DNA of 64,000 nt from Escherichia coli. GTDB taxonomy: Bacteria; Pseudomonadota; Gammaproteobacteria; Enterobacterales; Enterobacteriaceae. The notes beneath the pieces were generated by a model. The model was not told the origin of the DNA. It did not search any database and worked only from the letters and a program-made list of their open reading frames with translations. Within the stretch, counting starts at the first letter, position 1. The number at the start of each line of letters is the position of its first letter. The stretch lies in NCBI RefSeq assembly GCF_003334315.1, contig NZ_QOWR01000022.1; one strand, 5' to 3'. A program made the position numbers and the translations under genes. This document shows, piece by piece, positions 37,325 through 37,806 of this stretch.

Positions 37325-37806
37325 CCGTGAAGTGCGGCACCCCGTAGGTCAGACAAGGCGGTCACGCCGCATCCGACATCCAACGCCCGAGTCGGTTGCC
37401 TGATGCGACGCTGGCGCGTCTTATCAGGCCTACACCGCTGTGAAGTGCTCCACCCCGTAGGTCGGATAAGGCGGTTACGCCGCATCCGACATCTAACGCC
37501 CAAGCCGGTTGCCTGATGCGACGCTGGCGCGTCTTATCAGGCCTACACCGCTGTGAAGTGCTCCACCCCGTAGGTCGGATAAGGCGGTTACGCCGCATCC
37601 GACATCTAACGCCCAAGCCGGTTGCCTGATGCGACGCTGGCGCGTCTTATCAGGCCTACACCGCTGTGAAGTGCTCCACCCCGTAGATTGGATAAGGCGG
37701 TTACGCCGCATCCGACATCTAACGCCCGAGCCGGTTGCCTGATAAGACGCTGGCGCGTCTTATCAGCATACGCCACATCCCCGGCATACCATGCCGGATG
37801 TGGCAC
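37325..37806. repeat. Tandem BIME/REP array: about 4.3 copies of a 113-bp unit, ending in a long imperfect hairpin
   Basis: Unit ctgtgaagtgctccaccccgtaggtcggataaggcggttacgccgcatccgacatctaacgcccaagccggttgcctgatgcgacgctggcgcgtcttatcaggcctacaccg repeats at 37438, 37551 and 37664; a diverged copy starts at 37325. Each unit holds two REP palindromes. Confidence 0.85.

Follow-up and report, generated by a model that had tools for sequence, protein, structure and literature searches.

The window, by which we mean the whole 64,000-nucleotide stretch of Escherichia coli DNA that was analysed, carries two convergent genes whose stop codons are separated by a 490-bp spacer (37321-37810). On the plus strand lies eco, encoding ecotin (CDS 36832-37320, stop codon 37318-37320, within an ORF spanning 36811-37320; assigned from how RefSeq annotates the CP53 locus, which is 99.9% identical), and on the minus strand lies mqo, encoding malate:quinone oxidoreductase (CDS 37811-39457, stop codon 37811-37813, a 548-aa ORF; assigned from RefSeq annotations). 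An array of tandem repeats fills the gap between them. Tandem Repeats Finder (TRF) reported a single array at 37327-37766 with a period of 113 and 3.9 copies; matches amounted to 96%, the alignment was free of indels and the score was 789. An independent repeat search gave direct repeats of 224 nt at spacings of 113 and 113. Together these searches bear out the periodicity, which is real and far above chance. An earlier note, made from the DNA letters alone, had proposed about 4.3 copies of a 113-bp unit. The period stands, but the count is 3.9, because 37777-37806 matches the unit at only 13 of 30 positions and there is consequently no partial fifth copy.

The units start at 37327, 37440, 37553 and 37666. 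For comparison between alleles we gave each distinct unit sequence a letter, and the window's array reads A-B-B-C. Aligned in the register of the earlier note, units 2 and 3 agree at all 113 positions, unit 1 shares 104 of 113 with unit 2, in agreement with its description there as a diverged leading copy, and unit 4 tracks unit 2 for its initial 103 nt with 5 mismatches and is divergent beyond. Read along the plus strand, a unit begins with 17 nt, GTGAAGTGCTCCACCCC. A Z2-type palindromic unit follows, whose first bases are GTAG (for example GTAGGTCGGATAAGGCGGTTACGCCGCATCCGAC), and a linker of 20 nt separates it from a Y-type palindromic unit, GCCTGATGCGACGCTGGCGCGTCTTATCAGGCCTAC, which ends in CTAC; the last 6 nt are ACCGCT.

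The array as a whole thus contains four Z2-type and four Y-type units, alternating in type and inverse in orientation, with one of each per 113-bp unit, so that the two REP-type palindromes described earlier for every unit could be located in all four. The Z2-type units lie on the plus strand at 37344-37377, 37457-37490, 37570-37603 and 37683-37716, with GTAG at the 5' foot (37344, 37457, 37570 and 37683); the first is a diverged variant, GTCAGACAAGG, and the fourth has a weakened stem in which GTAGATTGG replaces GTAGGTCGG. The Y-type units lie on the minus strand at 37398-37433, 37511-37546, 37624-37659 and 37737-37766, and the first three have CTAC at the 3' foot as read on the plus strand (37430, 37543 and 37656), so that seven of the eight palindromic units have a standard foot. 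The Y unit of unit 1 shares 36 of 37 nt with a published Y REP query. The linkers within the array are 20 nt where units meet head to head and 23 nt where they meet tail to tail. RNA folding gave individual REP hairpins of approximately -19 to -22 kcal/mol on either strand (in unit 2, -20.2 for the Z2-type and -21.4 for the Y-type).

The last Y-type unit departs from this pattern. It forms a perfect 12-bp palindrome, CTGATAAGACGC/GCGTCTTATCAG, and has ATAC in place of the CTAC foot. The other seven palindromic units all retain a conserved stem mismatch, which appears as an internal loop in the folds; an inverted-repeat search and comparison with other alleles showed that in the terminal unit a GC-to-AA change at 37744-37745 makes the palindrome perfect. 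In vitro, the REP transposase TnpA_REP cuts and recombines single-stranded BIME DNA, for which it needs the GTAG foot as well as the mismatch in the stem, and a palindrome-perfecting change of the GC-to-AA kind abolished its binding and cleavage in vitro. Judged by its bases, the window's terminal Y unit is without either requirement, its foot being ATAC and its mismatch perfected. The same change is also present in the single-unit allele of an unrelated strain, ETEC4067 (NZ_CP122685.1), whose flanks are only 97.8% identical to those of the window. Its occurrence in two separate backgrounds would fit repeated correction of a quasi-palindrome, templated by the hairpin.

A BIME-2 is defined as a set of z2 and y REPs oriented inversely to one another and repeated in tandem several times, with short linkers between them and a copy number that varies between strains. 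The alternation of Z2 and Y units, their feet, the tandem copies, the short linkers and the lack of an IHF site place the array within this published definition, as does its location between the stop codons of two convergent genes; the earlier reading of a tandem array of a composite REP unit, which is to say a BIME-2, was correct. The array is the E. coli BIME-2 of the eco-mqo region, orthologous to REP161 of K-12, and is an already published element, with the assignment of its palindromes to Z2 rather than Z1 resting on a covariance model based on REP325 and on the published BIME-2 listing of the K-12 allele. That covariance model, Rfam naRNA4 (RF02564), was built on the Z2-Y units of REP325, the best-studied BIME-2, and has a gathering score of 59.5 bits. 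Units 1 to 3 scored 62.2, 76 and 76 bits on the plus strand, and unit 4 fell below threshold at 51.8; the alignments place a 7-nt insertion in the linker of the window's units.

Comparison with related elements sharpens this placement. REP161 (K-12 MG1655, 2304394-2305107) has its locus, 113-bp unit, flanking genes and terminal hairpin in common with the window. It differs in having six units, G-G-B-E-B-H, in a 714-bp spacer, against the window's four in 490 bp, and in retaining the stem mismatch in its terminal Y unit, where the window has a perfect palindrome. Unit types B and E are common to K-12 and the window's haplotype, although only B occurs in the window's own allele. The RefSeq feature table of NC_000913.3 has no repeat feature at eco-mqo, and we take the name REP161 from the supplement of the preprint of Harris et al. 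(bioRxiv 2026). REP325 (naRNA1-6, yjdM-yjdN, RF02564) resembles the window's array in its alternating Z2 and Y units, its GTAG and CTAC feet, its tandem amplification of whole units and its position in a 3' UTR. However, its period is 100 bp (5.8 copies, as extracted from K-12) rather than 113 bp, its linkers are 13 nt head to head and 17 nt tail to tail rather than 20 and 23 nt and are unrelated in sequence, and it lies between tandem genes of one operon rather than between convergent genes.

Two other classes were considered and rejected. BIME-1 elements (Y-L-Z1, RIB/RIP) also place an inverted REP pair in an intergenic region, but they are single copy and have a long L linker with an IHF site, whereas the window's array is tandem, is of Z2 type, has no long L linker and contains no match to the IHF consensus WATCAANNNNTTR on either strand. 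CRISPR arrays likewise consist of short palindromic repeats at regular spacing, but here the linkers repeat along with the palindromes (unit 3 is an exact copy of unit 2), and the palindromes are of two kinds that take turns, facing opposite ways.

We used the spacing between the two genes to follow unit number across the species. The query comprised only the 600-nt flanks on each side, spacer length was read from the span of the match, and 5,422 genomes matched. Among 60 evenly spaced genomes drawn from these, 41 had one unit (a spacer of approximately 139-149 bp), two had four, six had five, eight had six and two had seven, and in the remaining one the array was interrupted. A sample obtained with the whole region as query gave a similar picture, with one unit in 36 genomes, three in 3, four in 2 and more than four in 18. 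A single unit is therefore the state in about 65% of sampled genomes, and neither sample contained a two-unit allele. Across complete E. coli genomes the locus ranges from one to eight units, with spacers of 149, 375, 490, 603, 714, 829 and 942 bp corresponding to 1, 3, 4, 5, 6, 7 and 8 units, so that the variation in copy number between strains that had been anticipated from the window alone is indeed found. As a variable-number repeat with a 113-bp period, the array could serve as a cheap PCR marker in closely related lineages.

Unit number also varies within the window's own haplotype. The best 60 matches, all complete genomes with 100% identical 1200-nt flanks, comprised 47 genomes with seven units, eight with six, one each with eight, five and four, and two with one. 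With 47 of these 60 at seven units, the window's four-unit allele is a minority contraction. The unit maps suggest how it may have arisen: W5-6 reads A-B-B-E-D-D-C, and loss of E-D-D from this map, that is, a single in-register deletion of 339 bp, would suffice to give A-B-B-C. CP53 and 2018-11-3CC, which read A-B-D-C and differ from the window by one base, at 37576, require a different deletion, and contractions therefore recur. HH194M, with eight units, reads A-B-E-B-E-B-D-C. More divergent backgrounds have three- and four-unit arrays of their own, built from local unit variants, which indicates that expansion has occurred more than once.

The same comparison raises the question of whether the four-unit allele is an artefact, in which an assembler collapsed three units of a true seven-unit array. 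The prevalence of seven units among the best identical-flank matches would agree with a collapse, as would the simple relation between A-B-B-C and the seven-unit map, and the exact A-B-B-C allele occurs in none of 5,426 genomes, the best match being 99.9%. Set against this, CP53 and 2018-11-3CC are independent complete genomes with four units, one base away from the window; the evenly spaced sample held two more four-unit genomes, whose flanks share 99.9% and 99.5% identity with those of the window; and the five-, six- and eight-unit alleles within the haplotype indicate that real contractions are common. We regard a collapse as unlikely, and the four-unit allele as probably a genuine contraction.

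Some individual alleles seen in these comparisons deserve mention. Among strains from a dog study with identical flanks, Z1323PEC0010 has one unit and Z1323PEC0011 and Z1323PEC0013 have seven; the single unit of Z1323PEC0010 (type F) cannot be derived from the seven-unit allele by a simple in-register change. In the SYNB1934/Nissle-type genome and isolate 372_BP0083, which are of phylogroup-B2 type, the single units have decayed, with a mismatched Z2 stem and an altered Y loop, and one phylogroup-B2-type single-unit allele has lost the 3' arm of its Y unit through a deletion of 10 bp. The decayed palindromes and this deletion argue that selection on the palindromes is weak.

Between the array and mqo lies a further hairpin, GCCACATCC(CC)GGCAT-ACC-ATGCCGGATGTGGC, at 37772-37804, which was characterised by fold energies, by mapping to K-12 and by comparison of all alleles examined. 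It is 33 nt long, has a 14-bp stem with a CC bulge and lies 6 nt from the mqo stop codon; RNA folding gave -22.6 kcal/mol with z = -5.3. All alleles examined have it, single-unit ones among them, and it is a separate element, neither a REP nor part of the repeat. The 14-bp stem is perfect in most of the other alleles (-27.8 kcal/mol) and K-12 has 18 perfect base pairs (-33.4 kcal/mol), while in two phylogroup-B2-type alleles a T-to-A change breaks the loop-proximal pair. In the window's lineage, a CC insertion at 37779-37782 produces the bulge and lowers the stability to the value given above. The earlier note had rightly seen a long imperfect hairpin beside the mqo stop codon; it had counted it as the end of the array, of which it is not a copy, and its imperfection is confined to this lineage. 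Two exact-pattern scans for the hairpin gave no matches in species-representative genomes, but this result carries no information, since five of the six single-unit E. coli alleles read do contain the pattern. Conceivably, a hairpin placed 6 nt past the mqo stop codon might stall terminating ribosomes; for REPs near stop codons and trans-translation, we found no primary source in the literature.

The hairpin appears to mark where transcripts of both genes end. Table S16 of Harris et al. lists a bidirectional terminator, eco:mqo, at K-12 2305063-2305108, flagged as overlapping REP161, and the entry, given at -33.4 kcal/mol and detected in log phase, is exactly the K-12 hairpin sequence; the table re-tabulates a published 3'-end screen. 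Among the supplement's entries that were read, REP161 appears in the bidirectional-terminator table and not in the Rho-binding table. The mqo gene ends at 2305108 in K-12 according to RefSeq. With K-12 3' ends at the hairpin, eco transcripts cross the whole array and mqo transcripts stop before entering it. By its sequence and position, the window's hairpin is the putative counterpart of the mapped K-12 terminator, and the K-12 mapping fits the role for structured RNA at the 3' ends of eco and mqo that had been suggested from the sequence. The hairpin is not a canonical intrinsic terminator, since 37772-37804 offers a stem-loop without a run of U (the K-12 table gives two U in the 8-nt 3' flank), and a terminator scan found no stem followed by a U-tract anywhere in the eco-mqo spacer on either strand. 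A scan of the array likewise found no promoter-like site. RNA of the spacer folds far better than shuffled sequences on both strands (z = -7.5 and -6.3). As neither eco nor mqo has a canonical stem-plus-U-tract terminator, the stable hairpins would most likely be sites of pausing or attenuation and barriers to 3'-to-5' exonucleases. Since the window's hairpin is weaker than that of K-12 (-22.6 vs -33.4 kcal/mol), termination or protection may be less efficient here.

The best-documented property of the eco-mqo element is in vivo cleavage by DNA gyrase, which the earlier note did not mention. In the supplement of Sutormin et al. (NAR 2018/2019), the K-12 allele appears as "BIMEs2 eco>-<mqo", 654 bp, with the remark "Espeli, Boccard 1997: 6 cuts"; sites of gyrase cleavage there number 11 under ciprofloxacin, 7 under rifampicin combined with ciprofloxacin, 2 under microcin B17 and 5 under oxolinic acid. 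The same authors reported that some BIME-2 elements are enriched in cleavage sites, that Y units are cut more often than Z2 units, and that BIME-2 cleavage is undiminished when transcription is blocked. For REP325, Harris et al. described a partly Rho-dependent attenuator and mRNA stabiliser with no measurable role in nucleoid compaction; genome-wide, they found that pairs of convergent genes flanking a REP are more highly expressed, with half-lives that are not longer.

Bringing these strands together, we propose that the locus began with a single Z2-Y pair, the state of most sampled E. coli, which would have been duplicated in some lineages; that unit number then shifts rapidly by in-register slippage or unequal recombination, to which TnpA_REP may contribute; and that the window's allele may descend by the 339-bp deletion described above from the seven-unit map dominant at identical flanks. 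At the level of DNA, the array would be a strong, transcription-independent site of gyrase binding and cleavage, as the K-12 allele is. At the level of RNA, the entire array would lie in the eco 3' UTR, with the terminal hairpin marking the 3' ends of eco and mqo, and the REP hairpins would attenuate readthrough and slow 3'-to-5' decay. The functional data all come from the six-unit K-12 allele, and by analogy the window's four-unit allele would act likewise, its gyrase sites numbering about three or four and its terminal hairpin being weaker. Taken as a whole, this account of an eco-mqo BIME-2, amplified in tandem and acting through gyrase and at the RNA level, is in our judgement very probably correct. 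It matters little as a discovery, because the element, its class, its cleavage by gyrase, the terminator hairpin and BIME-2 copy-number polymorphism have all been published.

Another way to view the array is as neutral selfish DNA, an amplified REP cluster tolerated between convergent genes, next to a hairpin that terminates transcription alone and with gyrase cleavage incidental. This is the main alternative to the functional claims. It would accommodate the single unit in about 65% of sampled genomes, the decay of B2-type single units (one of them without the 3' arm of its Y unit) and the drift between one and eight units inside a single flank haplotype, and it draws further support from the mapped terminator being the hairpin rather than a REP and from terminal REPs bringing no genome-wide gain in mRNA half-life. 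Yet deletion of REP325, which has the same architecture, shifts the expression of neighbouring genes 3- to 10-fold, convergent pairs with an intervening REP are more highly expressed than pairs without one, gyrase cleavage at BIME-2 persists or rises under a transcription block, and a Z2-Y pair has been kept at this site in all alleles examined. We therefore consider neutrality improbable, and favour the account in which the BIME-2 acts through gyrase and RNA structure.

A more ambitious extension of that account, which we regard as doubtful and offer as speculation, is that unit number (one to eight) forms a fast heritable dial, and that the terminal GC-to-AA change is a recurrent hairpin-templated cap against the REP transposase. 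If this were true, every extra unit would bring one more Y-type gyrase site and lengthen the eco 3' UTR by 113 nt of hairpins, and alleles would differ in local supercoiling and in eco or mqo mRNA output in the manner of a contingency locus.

The naRNA4 matches lead to a different reading, in which the units would be genes for nucleoid RNAs whose processed two-hairpin products bind HU and condense the chromosome. Such a role was proposed in the original (2015) report on REP325, in vitro HU has a Kd of approximately 32 nM for naRNA4, and the three units scoring above the Rfam gathering score do so on the plus strand, which is the sense strand of eco. However, the 2026 preprint, which shares Adhya as a co-author with the 2015 report, found that deletion or overexpression of REP325 leaves nucleoid volume unchanged, and it found neither a stable HU-cruciform-naRNA4 complex nor long-range contacts between REPs; in the window, moreover, the linker is 7 nt longer than in the model and no promoter-like site occurs inside the array. 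This makes the reading very unlikely for the eco-mqo units, for which we retain that of a gyrase-cut BIME-2 within the eco 3' UTR.

Finally, that the internal ORFs (37-122 aa, on both strands) encode real small proteins, such as the recurring MRRNRLIRPTGW... peptide, can be dismissed almost outright, even though one RefSeq genome, UMNK88 (NC_017641.1), annotates a 'hypothetical protein' under the array, since 113 is not a multiple of 3 and no frame is periodic along the array, every frame on both strands contains 5-9 stop codons, the ORFs overlap each other on both strands, consist entirely of REP sequence and vary in number with unit number, and none has an NCBIfam match. The earlier note had likewise called these ORFs artefacts, and the minus-strand peptide that it saw recurring appears in the ORF list twice exactly and once as a variant. 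The UMNK88 entry illustrates that REP-derived ORFs enter public annotation. Annotation pipelines should mask ORFs in the array, which can also mislead short-read assemblies.

The array also offers targets to a mobile element. IS621 is an IS110-family element with a bridge-RNA recombinase, and the 11-mer ATCAGGCCTAC is its published natural target. Three intact copies lie in the window's array, one per internal Y unit (37423-37433, 37536-37546 and 37649-37659), and a fourth lies at 24146. The three internal Y units are thus natural IS621 targets, and at least one strain has an insertion there: in 2017-02-2CC (NZ_AP027764.1; 4600-6367 of the extracted locus), IS621 sits within the foot of the first Y unit of the eco-mqo array, precisely at ATCAGGCCT^AC.

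Elsewhere in the window there is a second BIME-2, at 49567-49757 on the minus strand, with two units 114 bp apart that score 80.4 and 77.5 bits against naRNA4. It too sits between convergent ORFs, 48862-49557 on the plus strand and 49757-52606 on the minus strand, which we take from their size and their position after micF to be rcsB and rcsC. The Rfam matches above gathering score included MicF RNA (45813-45906), a tRNA (20338-20411) and the L25 ribosomal protein leader (16597-16622), all of which are ordinary for this chromosomal region. A REP pair at 24125-24200 includes the short REP variant GCCTGATGCGCTACGCTTATCAGGCCTACG, followed by an A+T-rich linker and then GTAGGCCGG....
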